DNA of 44,173 bases, taken from positions 1 to 44,173 of the forward strand of contig DAIDBG010000057.1 in NCBI GenBank assembly GCA_027310225.1. The letters run 5' to 3'. The notes beneath the pieces were generated by a model. The model had not been told where the DNA came from. It saw only the letters and a program-made list of their open reading frames with translations, and ran no database searches. Each line of letters opens with the position of its first letter. The stretch's first letter is position 1. The stretch comes from a bacterium (GTDB taxonomy: Bacteria; Pseudomonadota; Gammaproteobacteria; Burkholderiales; SG8-41). Positions 12,838 to 37,197 of the stretch are shown one piece after another. The position numbers were made by a program, and so were the translations under genes.

Positions 12838-12914
12838 GGGTTCAAGGTTCAGGGTTCAAAGTTCAGGGTTCAAAGTTCAAACCAGAACCCGGAACTTGGA
12901 ACCCGGAACCTGAG
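12838..12914. repeat. Heptad-periodic imperfect palindrome (GTTCARR / GAACYYG units) in the ptsH-ptsI gap
   Basis: The left arm is GGGTTCAAGGTTCAGGGTTCAAAGTTCAGGGTTCAAAGTTC and the right arm is GAACCCGGAACTTGGAACCCGGAACCTG. 12845-12871 pairs with 12885-12911, with A.G mismatches at 12865/12891, 12858/12898 and 12851/12905 (every 7th position). Confidence 0.85.
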
Positions 12915-12934
12915 AGCGGGAACAACGACAGCGC

Positions 12935-14665
12935 ATGAGCTTCACGGTACACGGCATCGGCGTCTCCGGCGGCATCGCCATCGGGCACGCGCACCTGGTG
13001 TCGCACGCCAAGCTCGAGGTCGCGCACTACGTGCTGCCGCCGCACCAGGTGGCGGAGGAATCCGCGCGCTTCGATGACGCGATCCGCAGGGTGCGCGCCG
13101 AGCTGGAAGAGCTGCGCGACAACGTGCCGGCCACGGCCCCGCCGGAGTTCTGCGCGTTCATCAACCTGCACCTGATGATCCTTGGCGATTCGACGCTGTC
13201 GGCCGTGCCGCGCCAGATCATCGAGACGGAGCACTGCAACGCGGAGTGGGCGCTGAAGGTGCAGATGGACGCGCTGCTCGCGCAATTTGACGAGATTGAC
13301 GACGGTTACATGCGAGAGCGCAAGGGCGACGTGATCCAGGTGGTCGAACGGGTCATGAGGGCGCTCTCCGGCCAGCCCGGCTACATTCCCCCACCGCCGT
13401 CGGCGGATTCCGAGCACAACCTGATCCTGATCGCACGCGACCTCTCCCCCGCCGACGTCGTTCAGTTCAAGCAGCACCAGTTCGCGAGCTTCATCACCGA
13501 CCTTGGCGGCACCACCTCGCACACCGCGGTAGTGGCGCGCAGCCTTGCCATCCCCTCGATCGTGGCGCTGCACTCCGCCCGCAAGCTCATCCGCGAAAAC
13601 GAGCTCGTCATCGTGGACGGCACGCAGGGCGTGGTGATGGTGGATCCCGACCAGCAGGTGCTCGCCGAGTACCAGCTGCGCCAGCACCAGTTCGAGCTCG
13701 AACGCCGGAAGCTCAGGCGCCTGAGGGATACCCGCGCCGCCACGCTCGACGGGGTCGTGGTGGACCTCCAGGCCAACATCGAGCTGCCGCGCGACGTCGT
13801 GCAGGCCAGGGAAAACGGCGCGACCGGCATCGGGCTGTTCCGCAGCGAGTTCCTGTTCCTCAACCGGGACGGTCTGCCGGACGAGGACGAGCAGTTCGAG
13901 GCCTATCGCAAGGTCGCCGCGGACATGGACGGCATGCCGGTCACGATCCGGACCTACGATCTCGGCGCGGACAAGCCCGCCAACGGAGGGGAGCCGTGCG
14001 CGACCAACCCCGCGCTGGGGCTGCGCGCGATCCGCCTTTGCCTCACGGAACCGCAGCGCTTCATCACGCAACTGCGCGCCATGCTGCGCGCCTCCCATTA
14101 CGGCAAGATCAACATTCTGATCCCGATGCTCGCAACGGCGGCCGAGGCCGACCAGGCGCTCGCGCTGATCCGTCGCGCCAGGCAGGGCCTCGACGAGGAA
14201 GGCGTGCCCTACGACCGCGGCGTCAAGGTGGGCGGCATGATCGAGGTGCCGGCGGCGGCGCTCGCGCTCGGCATGTTCGTGCGCAAACTCGATTTTCTCT
14301 CGATCGGCACCAACGACCTCATTCAGTACACGCTCGCGATTGACCGCACCGATGACACGGTGGCACACCTCTACGATCCCCTGCACCCGGCCATCCTGAG
14401 CCTCATCGCGGACATCATCAGGACCGCCGACAGGGCCGGGGTGCCGATTGCATTGTGCGGCGAGATGGCGGGGGATGTGTCGCTGACGCGACTGCTGCTC
14501 GCGTTCGGGCTGCGCCAGTACTCGATGCATGCCGCGCACCTGCTCGACGTGAAGCAGGTCATCCTCAAGTCAAACCTCACGCAACTGAAGCCTCTCGCGC
14601 GCAGGATGCTGCGCACCACCGATCGCGAAAAGCTCCACGCGCTGCTCGACAAGCTGAACGCCTGA
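12935..14665 (+). CDS. ptsI: Phosphoenolpyruvate-protein phosphotransferase (PTS enzyme I)
   Basis: 576-aa ORF with EI signatures (GGTTSHTAVVARSLAIPSIV, GIGLFRSEFLF, FLSIGTNDLIQYTLA). Confidence 0.95.
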   Translation: MSFTVHGIGVSGGIAIGHAHLVSHAKLEVAHYVLPPHQVAEESARFDDAIRRVRAELEELRDNVPATAPPEFCAFINLHLMILGDSTLSAVPRQIIETEHCNAEWALKVQMDALLAQFDEIDDGYMRERKGDVIQVVERVMRALSGQPGYIPPPPSADSEHNLILIARDLSPADVVQFKQHQFASFITDLGGTTSHTAVVARSLAIPSIVALHSARKLIRENELVIVDGTQGVVMVDPDQQVLAEYQLRQHQFELERRKLRRLRDTRAATLDGVVVDLQANIELPRDVVQARENGATGIGLFRSEFLFLNRDGLPDEDEQFEAYRKVAADMDGMPVTIRTYDLGADKPANGGEPCATNPALGLRAIRLCLTEPQRFITQLRAMLRASHYGKINILIPMLATAAEADQALALIRRARQGLDEEGVPYDRGVKVGGMIEVPAAALALGMFVRKLDFLSIGTNDLIQYTLAIDRTDDTVAHLYDPLHPAILSLIADIIRTADRAGVPIALCGEMAGDVSLTRLLLAFGLRQYSMHAAHLLDVKQVILKSNLTQLKPLARRMLRTTDREKLHALLDKLNA

Positions 14666-14684
14666 ACCTTGAACTTTGAACCCG
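14663..14684. repeat. Half-copy of the same heptad repeat (TGAACCT TGAACTT TGAACCC), starting at the ptsI stop codon
   Basis: Three tandem TGAACNN units at 7-nt spacing, giving TGA in all three frames. There is no matching opposite arm nearby. Confidence 0.7.
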
Positions 14685-14742
14685 CCCGTCGGGGAATTGA
14701 CAATCTCCCGCCGGGCAGGTAAGGTTTGACCCGCTTCAGGCC

Positions 14743-14795
14743 GCGCCGATTTGATATTCAGCTTGCGGGCGCGTTACAAATCCGGCTAAAGAGAA
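14743..14795 (+). ncRNA. Candidate structured leader (SAM-II-like pseudoknot?) upstream of metX
   Basis: CGCGCC (14743-14748) can pair with GGCGCG (14767-14772). The enclosed GAUUUG can pair with the downstream CAAAUC, which gives H-type pseudoknot topology. The elements CGAUUU, GCUUG and GCUAAAG resemble the metA/metX SAM-II motif as I remember it. This has not been verified with a covariance model. Confidence 0.3.
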
Positions 14796-14815
14796 AACAC
14801 TCCAGTTTTTTCGAA

Positions 14816-14850
14816 CCCGGCCAGCGCAAGCTCGCCGGGTTTTTGTTTTT
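14816..14850 (+). terminator. Intrinsic terminator/attenuator hairpin abutting the metX start codon
   Basis: CCCGGC-cagcgcaagctc-GCCGGG followed by TTTTTGTTTTT, which runs directly into ATG 14851. Confidence 0.65.
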
Positions 14851-16044
14851 ATGGACACGGGAATCGCATCGAAATCGGTGGGCGTCGTCACGCCGCAGAC
14901 CGCGAAATTCACCGAGCCGATCCGGCTCAGGAGCGGCGCGGTGGTGGACGAATACGAGCTCGTTTACGAGACCTACGGCGCGCTCAACGCCGACCGCTCC
15001 AACGCGGTGCTGGTTTGCCATGCGTTGAACGCCGCGCATCACGTCGCCGGCTACTACGCCGACGACCCGGGCAATGTCGGCTGGTGGGACAACATGATCG
15101 GCCCCGGCAAGCCGGTGGACACGGACCGCTTCTTCGTCGTGGGCGTGAACAACCTGGGCGGCTGCCACGGCTCGACCGGCCCCATGAGCATCAATCCGAA
15201 GACCGGCAGGCCGTGGGGCGCGGATTTCCCGGTGGTGACGGTGGAAGACTGGGTCGCGACCCAGGCCCGGCTCGCCGATTATCTCGGCATCCACCGTTTC
15301 GCCGCCGTGATGGGCGGCAGCCTCGGCGCGATGCAGGCGCTCGCCTGGACCTACCACCATCCGCAGCGCGTACGCCATTCGATCGTGATTGCGTGCGCGC
15401 CCAATCTCTCGGCGCAGAACATCGCGTTCAACGAGGTCGCGCGCCAGGCCATCATCACCGATCCGGATTTCCACGGCGGGCACTATTACGAGCACCACAC
15501 GCAGCCGACGCGGGGTCTGCGCGTGGCGCGCATGATCGGTCACATCACCTATCTGTCGGACGACGAGATGGCCGCCAAATTCGGGCGGCAGTTGAGGAAC
15601 GGCAGGCCCAACTACTCGTTCGACACCGAGTTCGAGATCGAGTCGTACCTGCGCCACCAGGGCAGCAAGTTCTCCGAGTACTTCGACGCCAACACGTATC
15701 TGCGCATCACCAAGGTGCTCGACTACTTCGACCCGGCGCTCGATCACGGCGGCAGCCTGGCGAAAGCGCTCGCGCCCGCGCAGGCGAAATTCCTGGTGGT
15801 CTCGTTCACCACCGACTGGCGCTTCTCGCCGGAGCGCTCGCGCGAGATCGTGAAAGCGCTGCTCGACAACCGGCTCGACGTCACCTACGCCGAGATCAAC
15901 GCGCCGCACGGGCACGACGCGTTCCTGCTCGAGGACCCGCGCTACCACCGCCTGATCGCGGCCTATTTCGACCGCATCGGCAGGGAAGCACCGCCGGGCC
16001 CGGGAGCAGGGATCGGTGAAACGCGGAGCAGGGGCCCCGCATGA
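14851..16044 (+). CDS. metX: Homoserine O-acyltransferase (MetX family)
   Basis: [12 protein letters not shown]...[33 protein letters not shown]...[10 protein letters not shown] is the alpha/beta-hydrolase MetX pattern. It is followed by metW. The start is taken from the ORF track and has no visible Shine-Dalgarno. Confidence 0.9.
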
Positions 16045-16126
16045 GGGGGTGTGACCAGGGCGAACGCGGTTGCCGCCGGCACCCAATGGCAGATATTCGG
16101 CGCAGCGCATCGGAGGCGGCAGGGGC

Positions 16127-16732
16127 ATGAGGAACGGCAACGGCACCATTACGCAGCGGCCCGATTTCGCCGCGATTGCCGGCTGGGTGAGCCTGGGCTC
16201 GAGCGTGCTCGACCTGGGCTGCGGCGACGGCAGCCTCCTGCGCTACCTGAGGGAGAGCCGGCGCGTCACCGGCTACGGCGTGGAAATCGACGACGACCGC
16301 GTGGCTGCGTGCGTGAAGAACGGCGTCAACGCGATCCAGACCGACCTCGAGCGCGGGCTCACGGAGTTCGAGAGCCGCTCCTTCGACTACGTGATCCTGT
16401 CGCAGACCCTGCAGGCGGTGAAGAACAGCGAGCGCATCATTCGCGACATGCTGCGCGTGGGGCGCGAGGGCATCGTCACCTTCCCCAACTTCGGCTACTG
16501 GAAGAACCGCTGGCACGTGCTGACCGGGCACATGCCGGTGTCCGAGAACCTGCCCTACGAGTGGTTCGACACGCCCAACGTGCACCTGTGCACGATCGCC
16601 GACTTCGAGCGCTTCTGCGCCGGCCACGGCGTGAAGGTCCTCGAGCGCAAGGTGCTCACGCGCGGGAAACCCGTGAGCGCGCTGCCGAACCTGCTCGGCG
16701 CGCTGGCCGTGTACCGCTTCCAGCGGGCGTAA
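16127..16732 (+). CDS. metW: Methionine biosynthesis protein MetW
   Basis: RPDFAAIAGWVSLGSSVLDLGCGDGSLLRYL...GYGVEID...VILSQTLQAV is the MetW family pattern. ATG at 16127 gives the usual ~200-aa length; the longest ORF starts at 16070. Confidence 0.9.
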   Translation: MRNGNGTITQRPDFAAIAGWVSLGSSVLDLGCGDGSLLRYLRESRRVTGYGVEIDDDRVAACVKNGVNAIQTDLERGLTEFESRSFDYVILSQTLQAVKNSERIIRDMLRVGREGIVTFPNFGYWKNRWHVLTGHMPVSENLPYEWFDTPNVHLCTIADFERFCAGHGVKVLERKVLTRGKPVSALPNLLGALAVYRFQRA

Positions 16733-16735
16733 GAG

Positions 16736-16951
16736 TTAATAGATGATGCTGTGCGGAAACCGGCGCAGGGGGAAGCGGCGCCGGTCTTCCCGCCACGGTG
16801 CACCCAGTTGCGGATGCGCACAGAGGAGCCCGAGAGCACGTTCGAATTCCGCAATGAAAGCAAGCCCGAGTTCGGCGCCGGCTTACCGGGCGTAGTAGAC
16901 AGCTTCCTCGGTCAGCTCCCGGTCTGCCTCGGGACTAACCGATGGGGTCAT
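16736..16951 (-). pseudogene. ParE/RelE-type toxin remnant with an in-frame TAA and a C-terminal truncation
   Basis: My translation is MTPSVSPEADRELTEEAVYYAR*AGAELGLAFIAEFERALGLLCAHPQLGAPWREDRRRFPLRRFPHSIIY*. The premature TAA is at 16883-16885. The reading frame ends at 16736, where about 25 C-terminal residues of the family would still be expected. Its ATG overlaps the antitoxin stop (ATGA). Confidence 0.6.
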
Positions 16952-17168
16952 TTGACCGCGGCGCGCGCGCGGGCGATGGCGTCAGCCGCGGGAACGAGCT
17001 TGGCGCGGCCGCTCTCGATCTCCTTGATGCGCCGCTCGACCTCGATCGCCCACGCTCGATGTCTTTGTCCTCAAAGAGGCTGGCAATCAACCGGTCGGCG
17101 AGCCGCGCCCGCTCTTCCGCGGTGAGCTTGAGCGCCCGTGCTTCTATGACCTCGAGTTCGGTCGGCAT
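16948..17168 (-). pseudogene. Frameshifted 'addiction module component' antitoxin (TIGR02574-like)
   Basis: The N-terminal half MPTELEVIEARALKLTAEERARLADRLIASLFEDKDIE continues in another frame as WAIEVERRIKEIESGRAKLVPAADAIARARAAVK*. A 1-nt loss near 17054 would explain the shift. Confidence 0.7.
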
Positions 17169-17269
17169 AAGTAGCCTCGAAATGCCAATCAGCCCGGTAA
17201 TGATACCTCGCACGGACCCGGTTTTCTATCTGCGTCCTCCGCGTCCTGCGGTGAGAGGTGGTCTTCGCA

Positions 17270-18163
17270 CTAGCCGCCGATCCTGTTGCGCAGCAGCCCG
17301 AGCCCCACGATCTCCGTCTCCAGCACATCCCCCGGCTTCAGGAATTCCGGGGGCGTGCGCGCGTAGCCCACGCCGGAGGGCGTACCGGTCGCGATGATGT
17401 CTCCTGCTTCCAGCGTCAGCCCCAGCGAGAGCTCGGCGATGATGCGCGGCAGCTTGAAATACATGCAGCTCGTATTCGAGTCCTGCTTGACCACGCCATT
17501 GACGCGTGTCGTGAGGCGCAGGTCGCCCGGGTCGGAAATCTCGTCGGCGGTAGCGATCCACGGACCCGTGGGGCACGAGCCATCGAGGCTCTTGCCCTTG
17601 AACCACTGGTTGTGCCGGCGCTGCAGGTCGCGCGCCGAGACGTCATTGATCACGGTGTAGCCGAAGACGTGCTTCATCGCCGCAGCATCGGAAATGTTGC
17701 GCCCCCCCGGCCCGATGATGACGCCGAGCTCGACCTCCCAGTCGATTTTTTCCGAGGCCGTTGCGTCGAACGGGATCGCGTCGTAGGGGCCGGTGACCGC
17801 GGTTGCGGCCTTGGAGAAGAAAGCGGGGTGTTCGGGCAGGTCCACTTTCTGGGTGCGGCTCTTCGCCCCCTCCTCGAAGTGATCGAGGTAGTTCCAGCCG
17901 ACGCAGAACACGTTCTTGCGCGGGCGCGGAATCGGCGCCGCCAGCCGCACGCGCTCGAGCGGAACCGTCTCCTTCGCCTTCGCCGCGACATCGCGCAGCC
18001 ACGCCAGCGCACGGTCACCAGCGGCGATCAGCGAAATCATGTCCGCCGCATCGAACGGCGGCTTGCCGCCGACGGCCGCCAGATCCGCCACCCGGTTGCC
18101 TTCGCGCACGAGCCCGACGCGCGGCGATGCACCGGGTTTTGGAACAAAAGTCACGAGCCGCAC
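17270..18163 (-). CDS. Fumarylacetoacetate hydrolase (FAH) family protein
   Basis: VRLVTF...PRKNVFCVGWNYLDHFEE...IDWEVELGVIIG...GYTVINDVSARDLQ...KGKSLDGSCPTGPW...GDIIATGTPSGVG. GTG at 18163 follows AGGGAGG. The rest of the 543-aa ORF-track entry is antisense to ampG. Confidence 0.85.
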   Translation of the reverse strand: MRLVTFVPKPGASPRVGLVREGNRVADLAAVGGKPPFDAADMISLIAAGDRALAWLRDVAAKAKETVPLERVRLAAPIPRPRKNVFCVGWNYLDHFEEGAKSRTQKVDLPEHPAFFSKAATAVTGPYDAIPFDATASEKIDWEVELGVIIGPGGRNISDAAAMKHVFGYTVINDVSARDLQRRHNQWFKGKSLDGSCPTGPWIATADEISDPGDLRLTTRVNGVVKQDSNTSCMYFKLPRIIAELSLGLTLEAGDIIATGTPSGVGYARTPPEFLKPGDVLETEIVGLGLLRNRIGG

Positions 18164-21761: not shown

Positions 21762-21775
21762 CGGTCGGCTTTCCG

Positions 21776-23266: not shown

Positions 23267-23279
23267 CGCTGCCGCTCCC

Positions 23280-23379
23280 GTGAGGAGTAAGGAGTGAGGA
23301 GTAAGGAGGCAAACCCTCCAGCGCTCACTGCCAAGTTCTTCTCCTCACACCTCACACCTCACGCCTCACGCCTCACGCG
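23280..23379. repeat. Heptad-periodic palindrome (GTGAGGA/GTAAGGA units versus CCTCAC units) in the gatA-gatB gap
   Basis: 23280-23306 pairs with 23350-23376. There are 6 bp per heptad, and the 7th position is A.G or A.A (23286/23370, 23293/23363, 23300/23356). The gatA stop (23373-23375) lies inside the outermost unit. Confidence 0.85.
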
Positions 23380-24833
23380 TCGCATCCCGGGGGGATGCGA
23401 CGATGCCAGTCGGTCGCGAGCTGGTACTGGTGCGCGAGGCCGAGCATGCGCGCCTCCGCGAAATAATTGCCGACGATCTGCAGCCCGACCGGCAGGCCCG
23501 CCGCGTCGAAGCCGCAGGGTATGGACATGCCGGGCAGGCCGGCCAGATTCGCCGGGATGGTGTAAATGTCGTTGAGATACATCCGCACCGGGTCGTCCAT
23601 CTTCTCGCCGAGCCTGAACGCGGTGGTGGGGCTGGTCGGCCCTGCGATCACGTCGCAGCGCTTGAAGGCTTCCGCGAAGTCGCGCGCGATCAGCCGCCGC
23701 ACCCGCTGCGCCTGGATATAGTAGGCATCGTAGTAGCCGTGCGAGAGCACGTAGGTGCCGATGAGGATACGCCGCTTCACTTCCCACCCGAAACCCTGCG
23801 AGCGCGTCTTCCTGTACAGGTCGGGCAGATCCGCATACTCCGGCGCCCGGAAGCCGTAGCGCACGCCGTCGTAGCGCGCGAGGTTGCTCGAGGCCTCCGC
23901 CGGCGCCAGCACGTAATACACCGGCACCGACAGCCTCATGTTGGGCAGGCTCACGTCCACCGTCTCGCAGCCGAGTTTCCCGAACTCCGCCACCGCCGCT
24001 TCCACCGCCTTCATCACGGCGGGCGCGGCGCCTTCGGCGAAGAACTCCCTCGGCAGGCCGATCTTCAGCCCCCTCGCCTGCCTGCCGATCTCGCGCGCGT
24101 AGTCCTCGCGGCCGCGCTCGAGCGAGGTGGAGTCGCGTGCGTCAAAACCTGCCATCACGTTCATGAGCAGCGCCAGGTCCTCCGCGGTGCGCGCCATCGG
24201 GCCGCCCTGGTCGAGGCTGGAAGCGAATGCGATCATGCCGTAGCGCGACACCACGCCGTAGGTGGGCTTCAGCCCGCAGATGCCGGAGAGCGCCGCCGGC
24301 TGCCGGATCGAGCCGCCAGTATCGGTGCCAATCGCGCCCGGCGCGAGCCGCGCCGCCACGGCCGCGGCCGACCCCCCGGAGCTGCCGCCGGGCACGGTGG
24401 CGACGTCCCATGGATTGCGGACCGGCCCGTAGTAGGAGGTTTCGCTCGACGAGCCCATGGCGAACTCGTCCATGTTGGTCTTGCCGAGGTTGACCGCCCC
24501 CGCCGCGTTGAGGCGCTCGACCACATGGGCGTCGTAGGGAGAGACGAAGTTGGACAGCATCTTCGAGCCGCAAGTGGTGAGCCAGCCCCGGGAACAGAAG
24601 ATGTCCTTCTGCGCGATCGGGATGCCGGTGAGCGCCTGCCCGCGCCCGGTAGCGCGCAGCCGGTCGGCAGCCTCCGCCTGCCCCAGGCTCGCCTCTTCGT
24701 CGAGCGTGATGAAGCAGTTGTATTTCTGGTTTAATGCCTTGATCCGGCTGAGGAAATGCCTGGTGAGCTCAACGCTGGAGAGCTTGCGCGCCGCCAGTCG
24801 GGCAGATAGCTCCTTGATGGTGGCCTTGTGCAT
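23373..24833 (-). CDS. gatA: Asp-tRNA(Asn)/Glu-tRNA(Gln) amidotransferase subunit A
   Basis: Amidase signature [13 protein letters not shown] and [11 protein letters not shown]...TTCGSKML; 486 aa, between gatC and gatB. Confidence 0.97.
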
Positions 24834-24907
24834 TAGGGAATAGGGAAGAGGGAAGAGGGACGGGAATACCGGTTCTCCACCCCGCTCCCCTGTTCCCTAT
24901 TCCCTTA
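24834..24907. repeat. Heptad-periodic palindrome (TAGGGAA/GAGGGAA units) filling the entire gatC-gatA gap
   Basis: 24835-24847 pairs perfectly (13 bp) with 24893-24905, and imperfect pairing continues to a CCGG tip at 24869-24872. The element is bounded by the gatA ATG (24831-24833) and the gatC TAA (24905-24907). Confidence 0.9.
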
Positions 24908-25194: not shown

Positions 25195-26331
<1,137 letters not shown>

Positions 26332-26338
26332 TGGCGGG

Positions 26339-26422
26339 GTTCCGGGCTCAAGGTTCCAAGTTCAAAATCCCGCGTTCCAAGTTTCAGGTTTTGACGTTGA
26401 ACCCTGAACCTTGAACCCGGAA
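26339..26422. repeat. Palindromic element of the GGTTCAA/TTGAACC heptad type in the mreB-mreC gap
   Basis: GTTCCGGGCTCAAGGTTCCAAGTTCAA (26339-26365) pairs with TTGAACCCTGAACCTTGAACCCGGAAC (26396-26422), about 22 of 27 positions. The central 30 nt contain further GTTCCAAGTTTCAGG units. Confidence 0.85.
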
Positions 26423-26433
26423 CGTTGAAGCAG

Positions 26434-29768: not shown

Positions 29769-30855
29769 GCGCCTGGGCGGCTACGTGACGCGCCGCATTG
29801 ACGACGTGCTGCTCGGCCTCGTGCTCGCCTTGATGGCGGTGGGGCTCGTGGTGCTGTTCAGCGCCTCCAACGAGAGCTTCACGCGCGCGACCACCCAACT
29901 GCTCAGCATGCTGATCGCGCTGGGCGTCATGTGGGTCTTCGCCAACATCCCGCCCCACTATCTGCTGCGGCTCGCGTTCCCGCTCTACGTGCTCGGCGTG
30001 CTGCTGCTCATCGCGGTGATGCTGTTCGGCGACGTGGTGCACGGGGCGCGGCGCTGGCTCGATATCGGCATCACGCGCATCCAGCCCGCGGAACTCATGA
30101 AGATCGCGGTGCCGCTCGCGATGGCGTGGTACTTCGACCGCCACGAGGCGACCCTGAGGCTGCGGAACTACGCGATCGGGACGGTGATGCTGGTCCTGCC
30201 CCTCGCGCTGATCGTGCGCCAGCCCGACCTCGGCACGGCGCTGCTCATCGGCGCATCGGGCTTCTTCGTGCTGTTCCTCGCCGGGCTCTCGTGGCGCATC
30301 ATCGCCGGCCTGGCGGCCGCGGCCGCGGCGGCCATGCCGTTCCTGTGGTCGGCGCTGTACGACTACCAGCGCCAGCGCATCCTCACGCTGTTCGACCCGA
30401 TGCAGGATCCCCTGGGGACGGGCTATAACATCCTCCAGTCCACCATCGCCGTAGGTTCGGGGGGGCTCTTCGGCAAGGGCTGGATGAACGGCACCCAGAC
30501 GCACCTCGACTTCATCCCGGAGCGCATGACGGACTTCATCTTCGCTGTGTATTCCGAGGAGTTCGGCCTGTTCGGCAACCTGGTGCTGCTCGCGCTGTTC
30601 CTGCTCGTGATCTCGCGCGGCATGCTGATCGCCGCGAACGCGCCGACTCTGTTCACACGATTGCTCGCGGGGGCGGTCACGCTCACGTTTTTCACCTACG
30701 CCTTCGTCAACATGGGCATGGTGAGCGGGATTCTGCCGGTGGTGGGCATCCCGCTGCCCCTGATCAGCTTCGGGGGCACTGCGCTGGTCTCGATCAGCAT
30801 CGGTATCGGGATACTGATGAGCATCCACAGCCACAAGAAGCTTGTGCAAACCTAA
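29752..30855 (+). CDS. rodA: Peptidoglycan glycosyltransferase RodA (SEDS family)
   Basis: 367-aa polytopic SEDS protein (QPAELMKIA, DFIFAVYSEEFGL, GILPVVGIPLPLISFGGT). It overlaps mrdA by 17 nt. Confidence 0.95.
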   Translation: MHPAIRRLGGYVTRRIDDVLLGLVLALMAVGLVVLFSASNESFTRATTQLLSMLIALGVMWVFANIPPHYLLRLAFPLYVLGVLLLIAVMLFGDVVHGARRWLDIGITRIQPAELMKIAVPLAMAWYFDRHEATLRLRNYAIGTVMLVLPLALIVRQPDLGTALLIGASGFFVLFLAGLSWRIIAGLAAAAAAAMPFLWSALYDYQRQRILTLFDPMQDPLGTGYNILQSTIAVGSGGLFGKGWMNGTQTHLDFIPERMTDFIFAVYSEEFGLFGNLVLLALFLLVISRGMLIAANAPTLFTRLLAGAVTLTFFTYAFVNMGMVSGILPVVGIPLPLISFGGTALVSISIGIGILMSIHSHKKLVQT

Positions 30856-30988
30856 GGATGAAGGCGGAAGAATGACCTGTAGGCGGATCCCCCCGAAGGA
30901 TGAAGGCGGAAGGCAGAAGTACGGCCTGGTTTTGACACCCGCACCGCGGGGGTCATCGTTCATCCTTTATCCTTCGTCCTTCATCCTT
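30853..30988. repeat. Composite heptad-periodic palindrome (AAGGNNG units; two alternative left arms, one right arm) between rodA and rlpA
   Basis: Left arm A is AAGGATGAAGGCGGAAGAATGACC (30854-30877). Left arm B is AAGGATGAAGGCGGAAGGCAGAAG (30896-30919). The right arm is GGTCATCGTTCATCCTTTATCCTTCGTCCTTCATCCTT (30951-30988). The rodA TAA (30853-30855) is fused to the first unit. Confidence 0.85.
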
Positions 30989-31939
30989 GCCGCGGCGGCG
31001 CTACTCTTTGCCGTGGCGCTGAGCGGCTGCGGCACGGTCGCCAAGCGCGAGCCGGCGGTGAAGGCGCCGGGCGCGCCGGCGCCGCGCGCGGGCGGCTACT
31101 ACCTCGACGACGGGCCGGGAGAGAACCCGCCCGCCGATCTCGATAGCATCCCGGAACCCACGCCCCGGCTCGAGCCGCTGCAGCGGGGCACGGGCCGCCC
31201 GTACGTCGTGATGGGACGCAGCTATACGCCGATGACGTCGTTGCAGCCCTACAAGGCGCGCGGCATCGCCACCTGGTACGGCCGGCGCTATCACGGCCGG
31301 CAAACCTCATCGGGCGAGATCTACGACATGTACGGGATGACCGCCGCTCACCCGATCCTGCCGATCCCGAGCTATGCGCGCGTGACCAACCTCGTGAACG
31401 GAAAGTCGGTGATTGTTCGCATCAACGACCGTGGACCGTTCGTCGAAGGACGCATCATCGATCTTTCCTACACGGCGGCCTACAAGCTCGGCGTGCTGGC
31501 CAGCGGCAGCGCGTGGGTCGAAGTGGAAAGCATCATTCCCGATGCTGCCGGCACTCTTGTCGCCGCGGCACCGGCGCCGCGGCCGGCGCCGGTGCCCGAA
31601 GAAGATCCGGCTGCGGACCCGGGTACGACCATACCGATCGCCGCGGCGCCAGTCATGGCGGAGCCGCCGCCGGCTGCGGCGCCCGATGCAGCGGTGACGG
31701 CCGGCGCCGCCGGCTACTACCTGCAATTCGGCGCATTCGGCTCGAGGGAAAACGCCGAGAGCTATCTGGCGCGGCTGAAAGCGCAGCTCGATTGGCTGTC
31801 CCAGGTGCTGCAGGTCTTTGCGCGCGACGGGCTGTTCCGCGTGCGCGCCGGTCCGTACCCGAGCCAGGCCGAGGCGCAGCGGATCGCCCAGCGCATCGGC
31901 GAGGCGCTGGGCGTCAGACCGATGGTGTTGACGCGGTAA
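30872..31939 (+). CDS. rlpA: Septal ring lytic transglycosylase RlpA-family lipoprotein with C-terminal SPOR domain
   Basis: Lipobox LFAVALSGC, a DPBB domain (GIATWYGRRYHGRQTSSGEIYDMY.MTAAH..LP.PSYARVTN..NGKSVIVRINDRGPF) and a SPOR domain (YYLQFGAFGSRENAESY). The start is uncertain: ATG 30872 or TTG 30931, both inside the repeat element. Confidence 0.85.
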   Translation: MTCRRIPPKDEGGRQKYGLVLTPAPRGSSFILYPSSFILAAAALLFAVALSGCGTVAKREPAVKAPGAPAPRAGGYYLDDGPGENPPADLDSIPEPTPRLEPLQRGTGRPYVVMGRSYTPMTSLQPYKARGIATWYGRRYHGRQTSSGEIYDMYGMTAAHPILPIPSYARVTNLVNGKSVIVRINDRGPFVEGRIIDLSYTAAYKLGVLASGSAWVEVESIIPDAAGTLVAAAPAPRPAPVPEEDPAADPGTTIPIAAAPVMAEPPPAAAPDAAVTAGAAGYYLQFGAFGSRENAESYLARLKAQLDWLSQVLQVFARDGLFRVRAGPYPSQAEAQRIAQRIGEALGVRPMVLTR

Positions 31940-31977
31940 GCGGCGGGCGGTAAAGACTGGGGGCAGGGGGTTGCTGC

Positions 31978-32391: not shown

Positions 32392-32523
32392 GCTTGAAAA
32401 CACTACCACCAAGCACGATGACGCCTGGTTACCAGCGGTTGCTTTTTATGACAACCGAGAGTAGCATGGCACCCTGTTGCGTCACCTTCCCGTCAACTCT
32501 TTTGACGCCGCAGTCCGGTCCGC

Positions 32524-33459
32524 ATGACTTGGCGCGAGCGAGATCTCTCCAGGGTCATCGAGCACATTCCGCTCGGGGTTGCGATCACCCTGCCCGACGG
32601 CACGCTCGATTACGTCAACCCCCATTTCTCCAGGCTGATCGGCGCGCGCGGCAGCGAGCTGGTCGGAACGCCGCTTGCCAGCTGGTTATCAACGGACACC
32701 TCCGCGAGCGGCGGGGCGAAGCAACCGGTAAATGCCGCATCCGAGTGGCACGGGGAAACGCGTGTCCGGCGCAGCAGCGGGGATCTGCTCGACGTTCTGC
32801 TGGCGGTCTATCCGCTGCACGACAAGGCGGGCGTCGTCACCCATCTCGTTCACCTGGTGCAGGACACCAGCACGCAAAAGCAACTGGAACTTCTGTCCGG
32901 GTTGGCCTTTTACGATGGCCTGACCGGACTGCCCAACCGCAATCTGTTGAACGACCGCCTAGCGCGAGCCATTGCTGGCGCGCGGCGCCGTTACGGTGCC
33001 TTCGCTTTGCTCTACATTGACGTTGACCACTTCAAACAAGTCAACGACACGCTGGGACACGACGCCGGAGACGAACTGCTGCGTCAACTCGCCGCGCGCC
33101 TGTCGCGGTCTCTGCGCGCGGCCGATACCGTGGCGCGCTGGGGCGGCGACGAGTTCGTGGCCGTGCTCGATGGCGTGGCAAGCCCGCAGGCTGCCGCACA
33201 CGCCGTCCGCAAGCTGCTCTCAATCTGCGGGGGGCCGTACAATCTGCCCGGCGCCACCCGCTTCGTCACGCTCAGCATCGGTGTGAGTCTCTTCCCGCGT
33301 GACGGGTACGACGCCCCGGCCCTGCTCAAGCGCGCCGACCAGTCAATGTACGAGGTCAAGGCACGCGGCCGCGACGGCTACCACCTGCTCGAAGAGCCCG
33401 GCTTGAGCTATCTGAAAACGGCCCAAAAAGCACCGCGCAAGACCGCTTTCAGAACGTAG
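32524..33459 (+). CDS. PAS-domain diguanylate cyclase (GGDEF)
   Basis: N-terminal PAS (IPLGVAITLPDGTLDYVNPHFSRLIG). The GGDEF domain has an intact active site and I-site (DGLTGLPNR...LRAADTVARWGGDEFVAVL). Confidence 0.85.
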   Translation: MTWRERDLSRVIEHIPLGVAITLPDGTLDYVNPHFSRLIGARGSELVGTPLASWLSTDTSASGGAKQPVNAASEWHGETRVRRSSGDLLDVLLAVYPLHDKAGVVTHLVHLVQDTSTQKQLELLSGLAFYDGLTGLPNRNLLNDRLARAIAGARRRYGAFALLYIDVDHFKQVNDTLGHDAGDELLRQLAARLSRSLRAADTVARWGGDEFVAVLDGVASPQAAAHAVRKLLSICGGPYNLPGATRFVTLSIGVSLFPRDGYDAPALLKRADQSMYEVKARGRDGYHLLEEPGLSYLKTAQKAPRKTAFRT

Positions 33460-33487
33460 CAAAGCAAACGGCCAGCGGCTCACCGCT

Positions 33488-34204
33488 TCACGAAGTGCCC
33501 TCCAAGCGGAACACGATCGGCACCAGCACCCACGATTCGATCGGCTCCGCGCCCCGCCGCGCCGGCGTGAAGCGCCAGGCCTTGACCGCCTCCAGCGCCG
33601 CAGTGTCGAGATAGGGTGAGCCGCTCGATTTCTCGACATCCACGCGCGAGGGCAAGCCCTCGCGCGTCACCAGCACCCGCAGCGTCACCGTGCCCTGCTC
33701 GCCCGCGCGCCGCGCTGCGAGCGGATAGCGCGGCGGCGGATTGCGCAGATAGGCCGCGTCGAGGCCGGGCGGCGCCACGGCAGCGGCCGCCAAGTCGGCG
33801 TTGGGTCCCGTGGGCACGGCGCGTGAGGCTCCTGGCGGCGGTCCGACGGCGGCGTCCGGCACCCGTGGCGGCTCGGGCAAGGGCGGCGTGGCGGCGGCCT
33901 GCGGCGACAGCCCGGGCTTGACCGGGATCCTGGTCGCTGCAGGCTCCGGCTCGCGCCGCGCCTGAGGCGGCGGCGCCTGCGGCGGGGCGACCGGCAGCGG
34001 CTCCGGCTTCAGTATCACCACCTCCAGCGCGCCCGCCTTGGCGGAATCGCGCGCCCTGAACAGGGACGGCGGCAGCGCGGCGAGCAGCGCCGCGTGCAGC
34101 GCCGCGCTGCCGGCGAGGAACACCGCCAGCACGCGCCAGCTGCGCCGCCGCGCCGCCGCGGCACGCCTCACGAAGCCCTCTGCGGTCCCGGCTGAAGCCC
34201 TCAT
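33488..34204 (-). CDS. tonB: Energy transducer TonB-family protein
   Basis: N-terminal TM anchor, a Pro-rich spacer (PEPLPVAPPQAPPPQ...) and a C-terminal TonB domain (YPLAARRAGEQGTVTLRVLVTREG....VDVEKSSGS..LD.AALEAVK.WRF.PA). ATG at 34204; the upstream ORF extension is non-homologous. Confidence 0.85.
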   Translation of the reverse strand: MRASAGTAEGFVRRAAAARRRSWRVLAVFLAGSAALHAALLAALPPSLFRARDSAKAGALEVVILKPEPLPVAPPQAPPPQARREPEPAATRIPVKPGLSPQAAATPPLPEPPRVPDAAVGPPPGASRAVPTGPNADLAAAAVAPPGLDAAYLRNPPPRYPLAARRAGEQGTVTLRVLVTREGLPSRVDVEKSSGSPYLDTAALEAVKAWRFTPARRGAEPIESWVLVPIVFRLEGTS

Positions 34205-34263
34205 GCCTGCGCTCCGACGGCAAATCCCGACAAACTCCCGATGCAAAACCGGCACCGGGAAAA

Positions 34264-35007
34264 TTAAAGCAGCCACTTGAGAGCGCCGGTCGTCCCGAGG
34301 CCGACCGTGATCAACCCGGTCTGCCACAATACATCGCGGACGCGGTTCTGCTGGTGCAGGTAGGGGATCAGGTCCGCGATGGCGAGGTAGATGAAAGACG
34401 CCGCCGCCAGCGCGAGCGCATATTGCAGCAGCGACTGCGCGTATTCCAGGACGAAATATCCGAGAACGGCGCCCGCGACCGACGAAAGGCTGACCGCGAG
34501 GTTCAGCCACAAGGCGCGCGCCCTGCTGTAACCCGCATGCAGCAACACCATGAAGTCACCGACCTCCTGCGGAATCTCGTGCACCATGACCGCGAGCGTC
34601 GTGGTGATGCCGAGCCTGAAGTCCGCGAGGAACGCCGCGGCGATCAGCACGCCATCCACAAAGTTGTGAAACGTGTCGCCCACGGTGATCAGCATCCCCG
34701 AAGCCTTGCGCGACCCGTGGTCGCCGTGCTCGTGGCTGTGACGCCAGAGCGCCGCCTTCTCCAGGAGGAAGAACATCAGCAGGCCTGCCAGCATGATGCC
34801 GAACAGCGTTTCCGCATTCGCGGATTTTTCGAAGGCTTCCGGCAGCACGTCGAGGAACGTCACTCCAAGCAAAATGCCCACGGAATAGCTCACCATGCGC
34901 GGCACCCAACCCGAGAGCAGCGAGTAGGCAACCGTCGCCGCCAACAGCAGGCTCACGGCACCGCCCGCGAGACTGCCGCCGATGATCCAGAGCAGGGTTA
35001 CGTCCAT
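34264..35007 (-). CDS. ZIP-family divalent metal (zinc) transporter
   Basis: LDVLPEAFE, a His-rich loop (HSHEHGDHG), HNFVDGVLIAAAF and VMVHEIPQEVGDF are ZIP/ZupT signatures. Confidence 0.9.
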   Translation of the reverse strand: MDVTLLWIIGGSLAGGAVSLLLAATVAYSLLSGWVPRMVSYSVGILLGVTFLDVLPEAFEKSANAETLFGIMLAGLLMFFLLEKAALWRHSHEHGDHGSRKASGMLITVGDTFHNFVDGVLIAAAFLADFRLGITTTLAVMVHEIPQEVGDFMVLLHAGYSRARALWLNLAVSLSSVAGAVLGYFVLEYAQSLLQYALALAAASFIYLAIADLIPYLHQQNRVRDVLWQTGLITVGLGTTGALKWLL

Positions 35008-35078
35008 GGTGTGTTATCCAGCGCAAATCCGTTGCATCAATGAATCCGCTTGCAGCATCACCGCTTCCGTACCGAGGA

Positions 35079-35549
35079 TCAATGCCGGTGCTGTGCGCGG
35101 ACCCGTGAGCGGCGCCGGGCCGCCGGCCCGCAACCGGCACACAGCCCCTTCACCGTCAGCTCGATCTCCTGGGAGCGGAAACCGGAGGGCACCAGGACGC
35201 TGCGCACCGTCATCGCCTTGTCCAGGCAGGTCACACCGCCGCAGCTGTTGCACTTGAAATGCGCATGACGCCGGCCATGTTCTTTCTTTGCGGCGTTGAA
35301 TCGCCACACGCGATCGTCGTCCGAGATCTTGTGCGCAAGGTCCCGGGCGGTCAGCCACTCCAGCACGCGATAGACCGTCACCCGGTCTATGCCGAGGTTG
35401 CGCTTGATCCGCCGCTCGATCTCATGGTGCGTGAGCGCGCGCTCGGCGGCGAGCAGCGTCGCCAGCACAGCCACGCGGGCGCGGGTCACGCGGGCACGGG
35501 TCCGGCGTACCAGGGTTTCAGCCACCTCGTGAACGGCGCCCGCCATCAT
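35079..35549 (-). CDS. zur: Fur-family metalloregulator, probably Zur
   Basis: Winged-helix region (RVAVLATLL....LTHHEIERRI......DRVTVYRVLEWL) and CxxC pairs (CNSCGG ... CAGCG). It lies directly upstream of the ZIP transporter in the same orientation. The Zur versus other-Fur assignment is contextual. Confidence 0.7.
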   Translation of the reverse strand: MMAGAVHEVAETLVRRTRARVTRARVAVLATLLAAERALTHHEIERRIKRNLGIDRVTVYRVLEWLTARDLAHKISDDDRVWRFNAAKKEHGRRHAHFKCNSCGGVTCLDKAMTVRSVLVPSGFRSQEIELTVKGLCAGCGPAARRRSRVRAQHRH

Positions 35550-35587
35550 CCGCTCCCGGCGGGATTAAAGCACGGCGCGCCGCAAAT

Positions 35588-35602
35588 TGCAACCGAGTTG
35601 CA
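35588..35602. promoter_or_regulatory. Palindrome TGCAAC-CGA-GTTGCA in the zur/yidD divergent region (possible Fur-family operator)
   Basis: 6-bp perfect arms about 40 nt upstream of the zur start. It does not match the GTTAT/ATAAC-type Zur boxes I know, so the function is speculative. Confidence 0.2.
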
Positions 35603-35630
35603 TCAAAAACCGATGCTATACTGAATCCGG

Positions 35631-35846
35631 ATGAAATCCGTGTTGCTGTTCTTGATCGACGGCTACCGGCTGCTGCTCTCGCCCTTCTTCGGCGGCCAGT
35701 GCCGCTTCTACCCCACGTGCTCGAGCTACGCGCGCGAAGCGATCGAGGTGCATGGATCGTTGCGTGGCTCGTGGCTTACGATAAGGCGCATCGTGCGCTG
35801 CGGGCCGTGGCATCCGGGCGGGGTGGACCCCGTCCCGCCTCCGTAA
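35631..35846 (+). CDS. yidD: Membrane protein insertion efficiency factor YidD
   Basis: [62 protein letters not shown] is canonical YidD. Confidence 0.9.
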
Positions 35847-35920
35847 TGATGAATGCAGAATGATGAATGCAGAATGAAATTCCCTATTTTAAAACCTATT
35901 TCTCCAACCCGTTCATCATT
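35844..35920. repeat. AATGNNG heptad tract after yidD with a short inverted partner at the rlmI stop
   Basis: TAATGATG AATGCAG AATGATG AATGCAG AATGAAA lies at 35844-35879, and TTCATCATT at 35912-35920 is the reverse complement of AATGATGAA. The yidD TAA and the rlmI TGA both lie inside these units. Confidence 0.7.
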
Positions 35921-37178
35921 GTCTCGCCACCCGGCAGATGAGTCCCTTGAGATAGTCCCCTTCCGGGAAGTTGAGGGCGGTGGGATGATCCGGGCCGGGG
36001 CCGAGCCGCTCGATGATCTGCGCCGCCACACCGGCATCCAGCGCAGATCCGGCGACGATCTTCTGGAAGAGGTCGGCTGATACCCCGCCGGAGCAGGAAA
36101 ACGTCACCAGCAAGCCCCCGGGCCGCAACAGCTTGAAGGCGAGCAGGTTGATGTCCTTGTAGGCGCGCGCGGCTTTCGGCACGTGTGCAGCGGTGGGCGC
36201 GAATTTGGGCGGGTCCAGCACGATGAGGTCGAACTGACGGCGCCCGTCGCGCAGGTGCCGCAGCATCTGGAAGACGTCGCCGCCGACCCAGTCGACTCCG
36301 GAAAGATCGTTCAGGCGCGCGTTGGCCTGCGCCAGGGCAAGCGCTTCGGCGGAGCTGTCCAGGGCGAGCACCGATCGCGCCCCGCCGACCGCTGCGTTGA
36401 GCGCAAATCCTCCCGTGTAGCAGAAGCCGTCGAGCACGTCGCCCCCGCGCGCGAGCCGGCGCACCCGCAGGCGGTTTTCGCGCTGGTCGAGATAGAAACC
36501 GGTCTTGTGTCCATGTTCCAGGTCGAGCTGGAACATGAGTCCATTTTCGGTAACGATGATTTGCGTTGGCTGCCGGTCACCACGCAGAGGCCCGGTTGCC
36601 GCAGGCAAGCCTTCCAGGTTCCGCACTTCGGCATCCGAGCGCTCCCAGACGCGGGATATGCCCGCCGCCTCGAGCAGCGCGTCGGCGATCTCCTCGCGCC
36701 ACCGATCGGCGCCGGCGCTCGTCAGCTGCAGCACGATCGTGTCGCCGTAGCGGTCGGCCACCACGCCGGGGAGCCCGTCGGATTCCCCATGGATCAACCG
36801 GCACGCTTCGGTAGCGGCCCCGTCGAGCAGCTCCCGGCGCTGCGCCACGGCCCGGGCCACACGCTCCTTGAAGAACGCCCTGTCTATGGCGCGTTCCTCC
36901 CAGGCCCAGACGCGGGCGGTAATTTGCGACTGGGGGCTGTAGGCAGCGACCGCCAGGAACTCGCCGGTCGCGGACCAGACCCCGACGGTCTCACCCGGCC
37001 CCGGCTCGCCCCGCACATTCGCCACCGCGCCGGAGAACACCCAGGGATGGCGGCGCTTGAGCGATTTCTCCCGCCCAGACTTCAGGATCAGCTTCGCTGG
37101 TGAGGGGTGAGGGGTAAGGGGTGAGGCGGGATGCTTCGACCCTTTGCCAGAACGGCGTTTTTTATCCTCACTCCTCAC
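35916..37178 (-). CDS. rlmI: 23S rRNA (cytosine1962-C5)-methyltransferase RlmI
   Basis: KLILKSGREKSLKRRHPWVFSGAV...SPQSQI.ARVW is collinear with the E. coli RlmI N-terminus, followed by the PUA and SAM-MTase domains (VLD.FCYTGGF, DPP). The only canonical start is GTG 37178, which lies inside the repeat element. That leaves the N-terminal 28 aa doubtful. Confidence 0.85.
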   Translation of the reverse strand: MRSEDKKRRSGKGSKHPASPLTPHPSPAKLILKSGREKSLKRRHPWVFSGAVANVRGEPGPGETVGVWSATGEFLAVAAYSPQSQITARVWAWEERAIDRAFFKERVARAVAQRRELLDGAATEACRLIHGESDGLPGVVADRYGDTIVLQLTSAGADRWREEIADALLEAAGISRVWERSDAEVRNLEGLPAATGPLRGDRQPTQIIVTENGLMFQLDLEHGHKTGFYLDQRENRLRVRRLARGGDVLDGFCYTGGFALNAAVGGARSVLALDSSAEALALAQANARLNDLSGVDWVGGDVFQMLRHLRDGRRQFDLIVLDPPKFAPTAAHVPKAARAYKDINLLAFKLLRPGGLLVTFSCSGGVSADLFQKIVAGSALDAGVAAQIIERLGPGPDHPTALNFPEGDYLKGLICRVARQ

Positions 37179-37197
37179 GCCTTACTCACTCCTCACG
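37099..37197. repeat. Heptad-periodic palindrome (GGTGAGG units versus CCTCAC units) between xerC and rlmI
   Basis: GGTGAGGGGTGAGGGGTAAGGGGTGAGG (37099-37126) opposes CCTCACTCCTCACGCCTTACTCACTCCTCACG (37166-37197) across a 39-nt centre. The xerC TGA (37193-37195) lies in the outermost unit. Confidence 0.85.

Follow-up and report, generated by a model that had tools for sequence, protein, structure and literature searches.

Inverted heptanucleotide repeats between stop and start codons in an uncultured betaproteobacterium

Heptanucleotides have been known since 2007 to be over-represented among the long simple sequence repeats (SSRs) of bacteria from several phyla, Burkholderia included, and the cause is unexplained (the work of Mrazek et al., summarised by PMC4692102 and PMC4679880). 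Here we analyse a window of 44,173 nt, i.e. positions 1 to 44,173 (forward strand) of contig DAIDBG010000057.1 in GenBank assembly GCA_027310225.1, which carries hairpin-forming elements built from tandem 7-nt units in the gaps between consecutive genes; their lineage offers a rule-bound test bed for this question. The closest known case is that of the inverted GGGAATC heptamer pairs of Xanthomonas. In X. campestris and X. axonopodis these SSRs prefer about four units, are intergenic, lie mainly between co-oriented open reading frames (ORFs) and sit at most 50 bp from a stop codon or overlap it. Each genome holds 70-75 convergent inverted pairs with the G-rich arm first and the capacity to form a stem-loop, the unit number differs across species while the type is preserved, and the repeats were interpreted as G-quadruplex (G4) formers (PMC4692102).

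Like the Xanthomonas repeats (Rehm 2015), the elements of the window consist of at least three head-to-tail 7-nt units, form convergent pairs, lie between co-oriented ORFs and stay near a stop codon, and one of their units (AGGGAAK, in the gatC-gatA spacer) is almost identical to the Xanthomonas unit. In contrast to the single GGGNATC consensus with its G3 tract, many unit sequences occur here, and only the gatC-gatA and, in part, the xerC-rlmI element have tracts of three or more G. The present elements belong to uncultured betaproteobacteria, and the Xanthomonas set has not been described with stop-to-start bridging, periodic mismatches or arm-wise homogenisation.

Long heptanucleotide SSRs of prokaryotes in general share with these elements an intergenic position near start or stop codons and slippage as the proposed origin; the short tandemly repeated repetitive (STRR) and other heptamers of cyanobacteria and the TAACTGA repeats of Beggiatoaceae near start codons are further relatives. 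Those SSRs are mostly single direct arrays, whereas here the inverted hairpin arrangement is the rule and fills intercistronic gaps. At the hmw genes of Haemophilus influenzae the copy number of a 7-bp SSR in the 5' untranslated region acts via mRNA structure and RNase III processing (PMC12721329). That repeat is a single direct array at a phase-variation locus, upstream of one virulence gene, whereas ours are inverted pairs in housekeeping operons. Repetitive extragenic palindromes (REPs) and bacterial interspersed mosaic elements (BIMEs) of enterobacteria and pseudomonads are abundant in operons, frequently no more than 15 nt away from a stop codon, and their mRNA stem-loops stabilise upstream cistrons or affect translation termination; REP families have a conserved sequence with a GTAG-type 5' motif, are tied to REP-associated tyrosine transposases (RAYTs) and lack tandem units. 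Mycobacterial interspersed repetitive units (MIRUs), which Supply and colleagues described in 1997, are reportedly intercistronic, with ends that overlap the upstream stop and the downstream start, suggesting preserved translational coupling. They are units of 40-100 bp with small ORFs, unlike the hairpins of 7-nt units found here. Nor do our elements have the one conserved 20-40-nt palindrome with 5' GTAG that defines REP, BIME and REPIN sequences, for their common core is GTGAG and no palindrome is shared. The original prediction had set them apart from REP, BIME and enterobacterial repetitive intergenic consensus (ERIC) elements. This separation is supported, but the architecture is not unprecedented, given the convergent heptamer pairs near stop codons in Xanthomonas (PMC4692102).

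A search of the accessible literature, which covered few subscription journals, returned no description of betaproteobacterial elements of this type. What is new is a fixed architecture with variable, mostly G4-incapable units, in a different lineage and at high density, together with a stop-to-start bridging rule, a universal arm polarity and arm-specific homogenisation to account for periodic mismatches. The elements are a real, non-random and lineage-wide repeat class, and nothing established is overturned by them. As sequence varies while architecture is fixed, what is essential (period, polarity, pairing, position) can be separated from what is incidental (G4 potential, exact unit), and the set yields testable rules for the growth of repeats and for their effects on operon expression.

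Architecture, period and distribution

The window is an ordinary chromosomal segment of an uncultured soil or water betaproteobacterium, in which Pfam confirms the gene identities (gshAB, ptsHI, metXW, gatCAB, mreBCD-mrdAB-rlpA, yidD, rlmI, xerC, dapF and others). All nine sites of the original prediction are present, and Tandem Repeats Finder (TRF) detects period-7 arrays at each of them:

12838..12914, forward strand: ptsH-ptsI spacer (TRF, RNA and DNA folds, match to a Logan contig)
14663..14684, forward strand: solitary C-type arm of the GGTTCAR family (TRF, RNA z -2.3)
23279..23384, reverse strand: gatA-gatB spacer (inverted-repeat finder 23279/23341, RNA fold)
24832..24907, reverse strand: gatC-gatA spacer (inverted-repeat finder 24835/24881, RNA fold)
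26338..26424, forward strand: mreB-mreC spacer (inverted-repeat finder 26339/26397, RNA z -4.5)
30853..30988, forward strand: rodA-rlpA junction (inverted-repeat finder 30854 or 30896/30969, RNA z -2.3)
35844..35920, no strand assigned: between convergent yidD (forward) and rlmI (reverse) (TRF, RNA z -3.0)
37097..37197, reverse strand: xerC-rlmI junction (TRF, RNA z -4.9)
38081..38188, reverse strand: DUF484-xerC spacer (sequence reading)

An element comprises 3-13 tandem 7-nt units, a short loop that is often A-rich at its junction with the 5' arm, and complementary C-rich units; in the window the inverted-repeat finder gives arms that are 85-88% complementary. The two-arm architecture had been ascribed to eight of the sites, the ninth being given as a fragment, and is found at most of them, but 14663-14684 and 38081-38097 are solitary arms of three units, and the 3' arm at 35844-35920 is reduced. 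Folded on the transcribed strand and compared with 200 dinucleotide shuffles, the ptsH-ptsI, gatA-gatB, gatC-gatA, mreB-mreC and xerC-rlmI elements reach z scores between -4.5 and -5.8, and none of the 200 shuffles is as stable. The most extreme are the ptsH-ptsI (-41.3 kcal/mol, z -5.8), gatA-gatB (-61 kcal/mol, z -5.6, seven G.U pairs) and gatC-gatA (-47.6 kcal/mol, z -5.3) spacers, while the rodA-rlpA and yidD/rlmI sites (z -2.3 and -3.0) fold less strongly than the other two-arm sites folded as RNA. Folding as DNA gives the same picture, with z between -3.4 and -5.8.

The period is specific. A lag scan of the window detects six runs at a period of 7, none at 4-6 or 8-11, and one at 12, which is located in a coding region. 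For the larger comparison, scaling the required length to the period proved of no use, since short periods then find partners in a trivial way, and we used a fixed-length criterion instead (arrays of at least 28 nt, inverted partner sought within 200 nt). In 1.39 Mb, comprising the window and 80 loci around mreB from genomes, period 7 yields 21 arrays, 13 with an inverted partner, compared to 8 and 0 for period 6, 9 and 1 for period 9, 14 and 0 for period 12 and about none for the rest. A further 0.49 Mb of metagenome relatives (63 loci around mreC) adds 37 period-7 arrays, 20 of them partnered, with 0-1 partnered arrays at any other period.

Assembly error is excluded by an independent contig of the Logan assembly (run SRR5161795), which is 99.97% identical to positions 11311-15105 of the window and reproduces both pts elements. 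L001, the sole same-strain match found (L numbers denote the sampled loci), is identical to the window at the elements, and the same architecture appears in dozens of unrelated metagenome-assembled genomes (MAGs) and contigs. Among CRISPR arrays and coding repeats as known classes, the former were rejected on period and the latter on the intergenic position. Within the elements, a scan with Rfam 15 (E at most 1) gave only sub-threshold chance matches of miRNA-precursor models, at gatC-gatA and mreB-mreC. By sequence reading no T-run follows the 3' arm at any site of the window, and the elements are thus not intrinsic terminators.

Confinement to the window, which the original prediction had named as a ground for its refutation, does not hold. 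The elements are present in those sampled loci that are nearest to the window in relationship, and their bearers include uncultured Burkholderiales-like MAGs, Gallionellaceae, Sulfuricella, Sulfurimicrobium, some Rhodocyclaceae and Uliginosibacterium; the sampled loci of Burkholderia, Paraburkholderia, Herbaspirillum, Massilia and Nitrosomonas contain none. The set of this lineage is unusually diverse and dense: the window and L094, a 20-kb contig with ten arrays, have about one element every 5 kb. An earlier claim that most copies sit in operons of essential genes mostly reflects the gene content of the window itself.

The mreB-mreC spacer can be compared across the sample. It forms a strong hairpin in most betaproteobacteria examined, with heptads only in some lineages, a 9-nt unit in L011 and ordinary GC-rich palindromes in others. 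A hairpin is clearly acceptable, and perhaps wanted, at these junctions. Three of these spacers may be described individually. L011 (6895-7071, a Hydrogenophilales MAG) has an inverted hairpin with 9-nt period and CACAGAGRA units, L040 (5514-5607) a non-heptad, perfect palindrome of about 31 bp (-72 kcal/mol), and L035 (5762-6117, Gallionellaceae) a spacer of 356 nt with a very long hairpin (-167 kcal/mol) that looks like a different inserted element.

Rules of position, polarity and unit sequence

The following rules derive from 37 unique elements; the tests of stop distance and strand used 31 co-directional ones. The placement first proposed, intercistronic from the stop codon to near the next start, is borne out: for 30 of the 31, the stop falls between -22 and +8 nt relative to the start of the array, and the mean lag-7 identity leaves its background level and reaches the plateau over exactly the stretch from the stop's first base to +7. 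The start codon that follows is usually found -3 to +27 nt past the 3' arm, and it abuts the arm without space for a Shine-Dalgarno (SD) sequence at gatA of the window and in L006, L040 and L094. Flanking genes are co-directional in 34 of 36 determinable cases (set of 41 elements), the other two being one divergent and one convergent pair. Relatives without an element have junctions of 7-27 nt; the element is in effect the spacer.

The sites of the window illustrate this rule. The gatA stop UGA (23375-23373), the gatC stop UAA (24907-24905) and the xerC stop UGA (37195-37193) are contained in the first unit, and the rodA stop TAA (30853-30855) overlaps it, as does the ptsI stop, which is the first triplet of the solitary arm TGAACCT TGAACTT TGAACCC. 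The ptsH stop TAA (12831-12833) and the mreB stop (26329-26331) lie just ahead of their arrays. On the downstream side ATG codons are found at 12935 (ptsI), 26434 (mreC) and 23266 (gatB, preceded by GGGAG), and the gatA AUG (24833) touches the 3' arm, leaving zero space for an SD sequence. Overall, about one stop codon in three keeps the register of the units (gagTGAggcGTGAGGC..., gagTAAgggAATAGGG...), and the stop-codon context of the first unit is also found in relatives without an array. We considered a seeding of the unit by the stop codon, because the triplet 7 nt past the stop is itself a stop in 9 of 31 elements. This is suggestive, but C-poor arms are expected to be rich in TGA and TAA, so that it provides no independent evidence, and the idea was set aside.

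Polarity is equally regular: 35 of 37 elements have the G/purine-rich arm on the 5' side and the C-rich arm on the 3' side. Since either strand gives this same order, it truly belongs to the element, and it corresponds to the convergent orientation of the Xanthomonas pairs. For solitary arrays, the expectation of G-type arms by stops and C-type arms by starts gave a mixed outcome in a small sample.

Unit sequences differ from site to site, as had been noted, and the family is defined by architecture and not by one conserved sequence; yet the units are not arbitrary. Rotated to a common frame, 56 arm consensus units from many loci and taxa give a degenerate GTGAGGN with A at position 4 in 91% and G at position 3 in 82%, a profile that the rotation inflates somewhat. 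Within the window the GGTTCAR type occurs at four sites and the GTGAGGN type at two. The ptsH-ptsI element has six GGTTCAR units in its 5' arm (12838-12881), an ACCA loop and four GAACCYG units in its 3' arm (12885-12912), with alternating unit variants mirrored between the arms. The related solitary arm at 14663 has no inverted partner, and the mreB-mreC element pairs GGTTCCR/AGTTCAA with TGAACCY/GGAAC. On the mRNA strand gatA-gatB has five GTGAGGY units opposite four CCUYACU units, and xerC-rlmI has GTGAGGA units (GGTGAGG on the forward strand). The AGGGAAK of gatC-gatA is the sole clearly G4-capable, Xanthomonas-like unit of the window.

The loop sequences of different copies bear no relation to each other. 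About 40% of arms have an A-run of the GGCGGAAAA type at the arm-loop junction, as read off a listing of arm ends. After the last G-rich unit we often see such an A-run followed by a small GC-rich inner hairpin (GGCGGAAAA-CCNGCC...), for example at 37160-37172 (reverse strand) of the window and in L097 (11060-11075), L101 (7050-7065) and L026 (2640-2660).

The regular 7-nt defect in the stem, which the original prediction regarded as typical, is real in ptsH-ptsI (three to four 1x1 A.G mismatches at 7-nt spacing) and in gatA-gatB, where the helices consist of 6-bp blocks between the mismatches, but it does not define the family: only 6 of 37 elements show mismatches at a spacing of 7 or 14 nt, and another 5 lack any 1x1 mismatch. 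Likewise, a purine-purine seventh position is correct for the forward strand of the window, but on the transcribed (reverse) strand of gatA-gatB the same positions are C.U or U.U. On the forward strand most 1x1 stem mismatches of the ptsH-ptsI, gatA-gatB, gatC-gatA, mreB-mreC, rodA-rlpA and xerC-rlmI elements are purine-purine (A.G, A.A, G.G) whatever the gene direction, with a few A.C or C.A mismatches in gatA-gatB, gatC-gatA and mreB-mreC. This bias could be chance, given six sites, or a replication-strand bias.

Turnover, strand symmetry and origin

Since no very close relatives of the window were found, evolutionary dynamics were read from other related pairs. The closest MreB among the species representatives of GTDB is 93% identical and belongs to a soil 'Burkholderiales' MAG (the source genome is not itself a representative), and the closest MreC from JGI metagenomes is 71% identical. 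Between L097 and L098 (99.4% identical) the gatA-gatB spacer measures 155 versus 128 nt, a difference of exactly three 9-nt units, (GCGTCCTTY)4 versus a single copy, which shows that 9-nt units behave like heptads. L101 and L102 (95.7% identical) differ in the 5' arm, where GCGACAG occurs once in L101 and in every unit in L102. The 3' arm of L102 keeps CTCTCGC-type units, which results in a periodic C.C defect, and the minimum free energy (MFE) is -71.7 kcal/mol for L101 versus -38.5 kcal/mol for L102. Homogenisation of one arm for a variant unit produces a mismatch every 7 nt, and separate homogenisation of each arm is the simplest explanation of the regular defect. In ptsH-ptsI, TTCA is fixed throughout the 5' arm and GGAA throughout the 3' arm, and the perfectly matching TGAA variant is found in the sister arms at 14663 and 26397.

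Whole elements turn over as well. The mreB-mreC junction is 7 nt long in L085, while L090 (91.7% identical) carries an 85-nt GTGAGGN hairpin; no target-site duplication is visible at the boundary in this single such pair. Arms can be unequal: 13 units face 5 in L094, and 6 face 4 in ptsH-ptsI. Very long one-sided arrays occur in L094 (14776-14930, 13 GGTGAAC units against a five-unit partner) and L003 (18913-19052, 11 GGTGAGC units), which indicates that one arm can greatly outgrow the other.

To separate DNA-level from RNA-level causes we compared the two strands. Selection on the mRNA predicts that G.U pairs accumulate on the sense strand and that A.C mismatches are rare there. The 31 co-directional elements have no such signature, with 69 G.U pairs on the sense strand versus 79 on the antisense strand and 31 versus 18 A.C mismatches. 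The summed MFE is -1403 kcal/mol for sense versus -1480 kcal/mol for antisense, and the sense strand is the more stable in 11 of 31. As no strand bias was found in G.U, A.C or MFE, an RNA-selected structure cannot be claimed; on this evidence the palindrome is a DNA-level property and any RNA role is secondary or only weakly selected. The original prediction had rightly treated any function as inference.

The observations from which an explanation must start are the hairpin structure with its specific period of 7, the order of the arms, their boundaries at stop and start codons, rapid turnover, arm-wise concerted evolution and the lack of a sense-strand signature. The explanation we prefer, with a somewhat better than even chance of being right, is that the elements are hairpin-forming inverted heptanucleotide microsatellites that are made and remodelled at the DNA level and persist where the stop of one gene is followed by the start of another. 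Within each arm, slipped-strand mispairing would add or remove units and spread a variant unit through one arm, and an extra step, for which template switching is the obvious candidate, would build or restore the complementary arm. Elements would survive almost only where a hairpin is harmless, i.e. in the stop-to-start gap of co-directional genes. Folding would place stop and start on the two sides of the helix base, and an ancestrally tight, coupled junction could stay coupled because the two codons remain adjacent there. Once transcribed, such an element may act like a REP/BIME intercistronic stem-loop: a terminating ribosome might melt the base of the stem and expose the next start, and an intact stem might block 3' exonucleases or be cut by RNase III, tuning the relative output of the neighbouring cistrons.

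Several points weigh against this microsatellite explanation. It does not account for the use of 7 nt, and essentially only 7, and slippage does not by itself create the complementary arm. That GTGAGGN-like units dominate over loci and taxa could mean a recognised sequence or a mobile ancestor in place of local growth. The gatA-gatB element folds to -61 kcal/mol on the transcribed versus -42 kcal/mol on the opposite strand. In addition, the start codons and transcription strands of the related loci were deduced from GC3 (third-codon-position GC) periodicity and ORFs and not from annotation, and the locus sample, centred on the gat and mre operons, is skewed to operon junctions.

The most serious alternative, although we think it improbable, is that the elements are selected RNA structures, namely intercistronic regulatory stem-loops acting in processing or stability, attenuation or translational coupling, with heptads as just the mode of construction. 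Orthologous mreB-mreC spacers that are strongly hairpinned in most sampled betaproteobacteria regardless of sequence are consistent with it, and so is the exact coincidence of element boundaries with stop and start codons. The yidD/rlmI element has the same units in the window and in L094 even though MreC is only 66% identical, the gatA-gatB element with its seven G.U pairs is 19 kcal/mol more stable on the transcribed strand, and the mirrored unit variants of ptsH-ptsI point the same way. What speaks against RNA selection is first the strand test, with no overall sense bias in G.U versus A.C or in MFE (sense more stable in 11 of 31). Moreover, pairing decays when one arm is homogenised (L102), elements are present or absent between genomes about 92% identical, and solitary arms (14663) and non-complementary arm pairs (DUF484-xerC) exist.

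Somewhat less probable still is an origin as non-autonomous mobile DNA, similar to REPINs or MITEs (miniature inverted-repeat transposable elements), in which a GTGAGGN-type master was spread in trans by an enzyme with its gene elsewhere in the genome and its copies later diverged by slippage. The dominance of the degenerate GTGAGGN unit over many loci and taxa, the recurrence of unit types in the window (GGTTCAR at four sites, GTGAGGN at two), the clean presence/absence at the mreB-mreC junction of L085 and L090, the density of about one element per 5 kb in the window and L094, and the GGCGGAAAA-type A-run at roughly two in five arm-loop junctions would all fit. Mobility would also lead one to expect conserved termini and a target-site duplication, but no conserved termini were seen and the L085/L090 boundary has no duplication. 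Loops are unrelated between copies, and roughly one element in three has a first unit that keeps the register of the native stop-codon context. Pfam identifies no transposase or RAYT gene among the genes of the 44-kb window, and the elements are almost absent from viral contigs, where a search for (GTGAGGN)3...(NCCTCAC)2 returned only four hits and thus no phage link.

Two further ideas find little room. It is quite unlikely that the elements serve as binding arrays for a reader of 7-nt units on single- or double-stranded nucleic acid, such as a cold-shock/OB-fold (oligonucleotide-binding fold) or nucleoid protein, with the hairpin as a secondary feature: such a protein would enforce the strict period of 7 nt, the common degenerate unit and the constant polarity of the arms, and Bacillus subtilis CspB reportedly binds heptamer direct repeats with one protein per heptamer (summary in PMC4679880), but no candidate protein is known here, units vary widely across the sites of one genome, and the second arm is always complementary, which a single-strand binder does not need. 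That the G4 of a G-rich arm modulates expression, as proposed for the GGGNATC heptamers of Xanthomonas and Nostoc, is the least credible of all, because only the gatC-gatA unit (AGGGAAK x4, close to that of Xanthomonas) and partly xerC-rlmI (GGGG tracts) satisfy the G3+N1-7 rule, most units (GGTTCAR, GTGAGGC, AATGATG, AAGGATG, GCGAGAG, CAGCTGT) are G4-incapable, and what all elements have in common is the hairpin and the 7-nt period.

In a functional reading, the heptad hairpins would serve as 'stop-start bridges' that fold out 60-140 nt of spacer and set the stop and the following start on opposite sides of the helix base. This is doubtful, ranking behind a mobile origin in our estimate, but it would have consequences. 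Translation of the second gene, whose start is often SD-less, would depend on the ribosome that terminates at the first and whose retention would be aided by SD-like motifs (GAGG/AGGAG) in the 5' arm, and slippage by 7 nt in either arm would be a heritable and reversible retuning of coupling strength in housekeeping operons such as gatCAB, ptsHI and mreBCD. Whatever their origin, the elements account for long 'intergenic' gaps and doubtful starts (rlmI, rlpA) in the annotation of MAGs, and they are likely hotspots of assembly and indel variation.

Individual sites and neighbouring features

At the rodA-rlpA junction the 5' arm AAGGATGAAGGCGGAAG is present twice (30854 and 30896) and faces a single 3' arm (30953-30988). 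The latter shares the reading frame of the RlpA lipobox (...SSFILYPSSFILAAAALLFAVALSGC) and precedes it, so that this arm is probably translated as part of the RlpA signal peptide. C-rich heptads of the TTCATCC type at the 5' end of rlpA (window 30932-31030, forward strand) are in frame with this lipoprotein signal peptide and recur at the same place in L096 (11846-11874) and L111 (6266-6301), relatives without a complementary G-rich arm. This suggests that a coding-side arm can exist first or alone.

Between the convergent yidD and rlmI genes, a 5' arm of 4.5 AATGATG/AATGCAG units is followed by a 3' arm cut down to GTTCATCATT, about 1.5 units. The orthologous element in L094 (16018-16115) is built of these units too, but with a 3' arm that is complete (five units); most of this arm has been lost from the window copy. 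Both copies hold the stops of the two convergent genes in their outermost units. The repeat units supply the yidD end TAA TGA TGA (35844-35852, forward strand; out of frame and in frame) as well as the rlmI end TGA TGA (35918-35910, reverse strand).

The other end of rlmI is affected by the xerC-rlmI element. No canonical start (ATG, GTG or TTG) exists between the element and the conserved N-terminus AKLILKSGREKSLKRRHPWV (window 37030-37197, reverse strand), and the only canonical one is GTG 37178, within the 5' arm. Judged from the reading frame, either a low-complexity extension of 27 residues (VRSEDKKRRSGKGSKHPASPLTPHPSP) would be translated from the element or rlmI would use a non-canonical start. 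If the extension is translated, a slip of plus or minus 7 nt would shift the frame of rlmI.

In the DUF484-xerC spacer, G-type heptads GGCAAAG GCGGGAG GCGGAGA GGGG (TAAGGCAAAGGCGGGAGGCGGAGAGGGG) directly follow the DUF484 stop (38188-38162, reverse strand), and a solitary C-type arm of the GTTTCAR family (CCTGAAACTTGAAACCCGAAAC) is located at the xerC start (38101-38081). The two arms belong to different families, are not complementary and do not pair; the site may be a decayed or chimeric element.

Two regulatory features outside the heptad family were also seen in the window. A match to SAM-II (SAM_alpha, RF00521) at 14733-14810 (forward strand) scores 35.7 bits at a gathering score of 36 (E 1.5e-4). 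It is located directly upstream of metX (alpha/beta hydrolase, 14851-16044) and metW (16070-16732), and a promoter-like TTGACA...TAAGGT lies ahead of it at about 14700-14728. The match is very likely a genuine S-adenosylmethionine (SAM) riboswitch that would govern methionine biosynthesis. Finally, amtB is followed at 9517-9545 (forward strand) by a classical intrinsic-terminator-like hairpin with a T-run (GACGGGCGCCTGCGGGCGCCCGTTTTTTT), which indicates that ordinary terminators coexist with the heptad hairpins that lack a U-tract.

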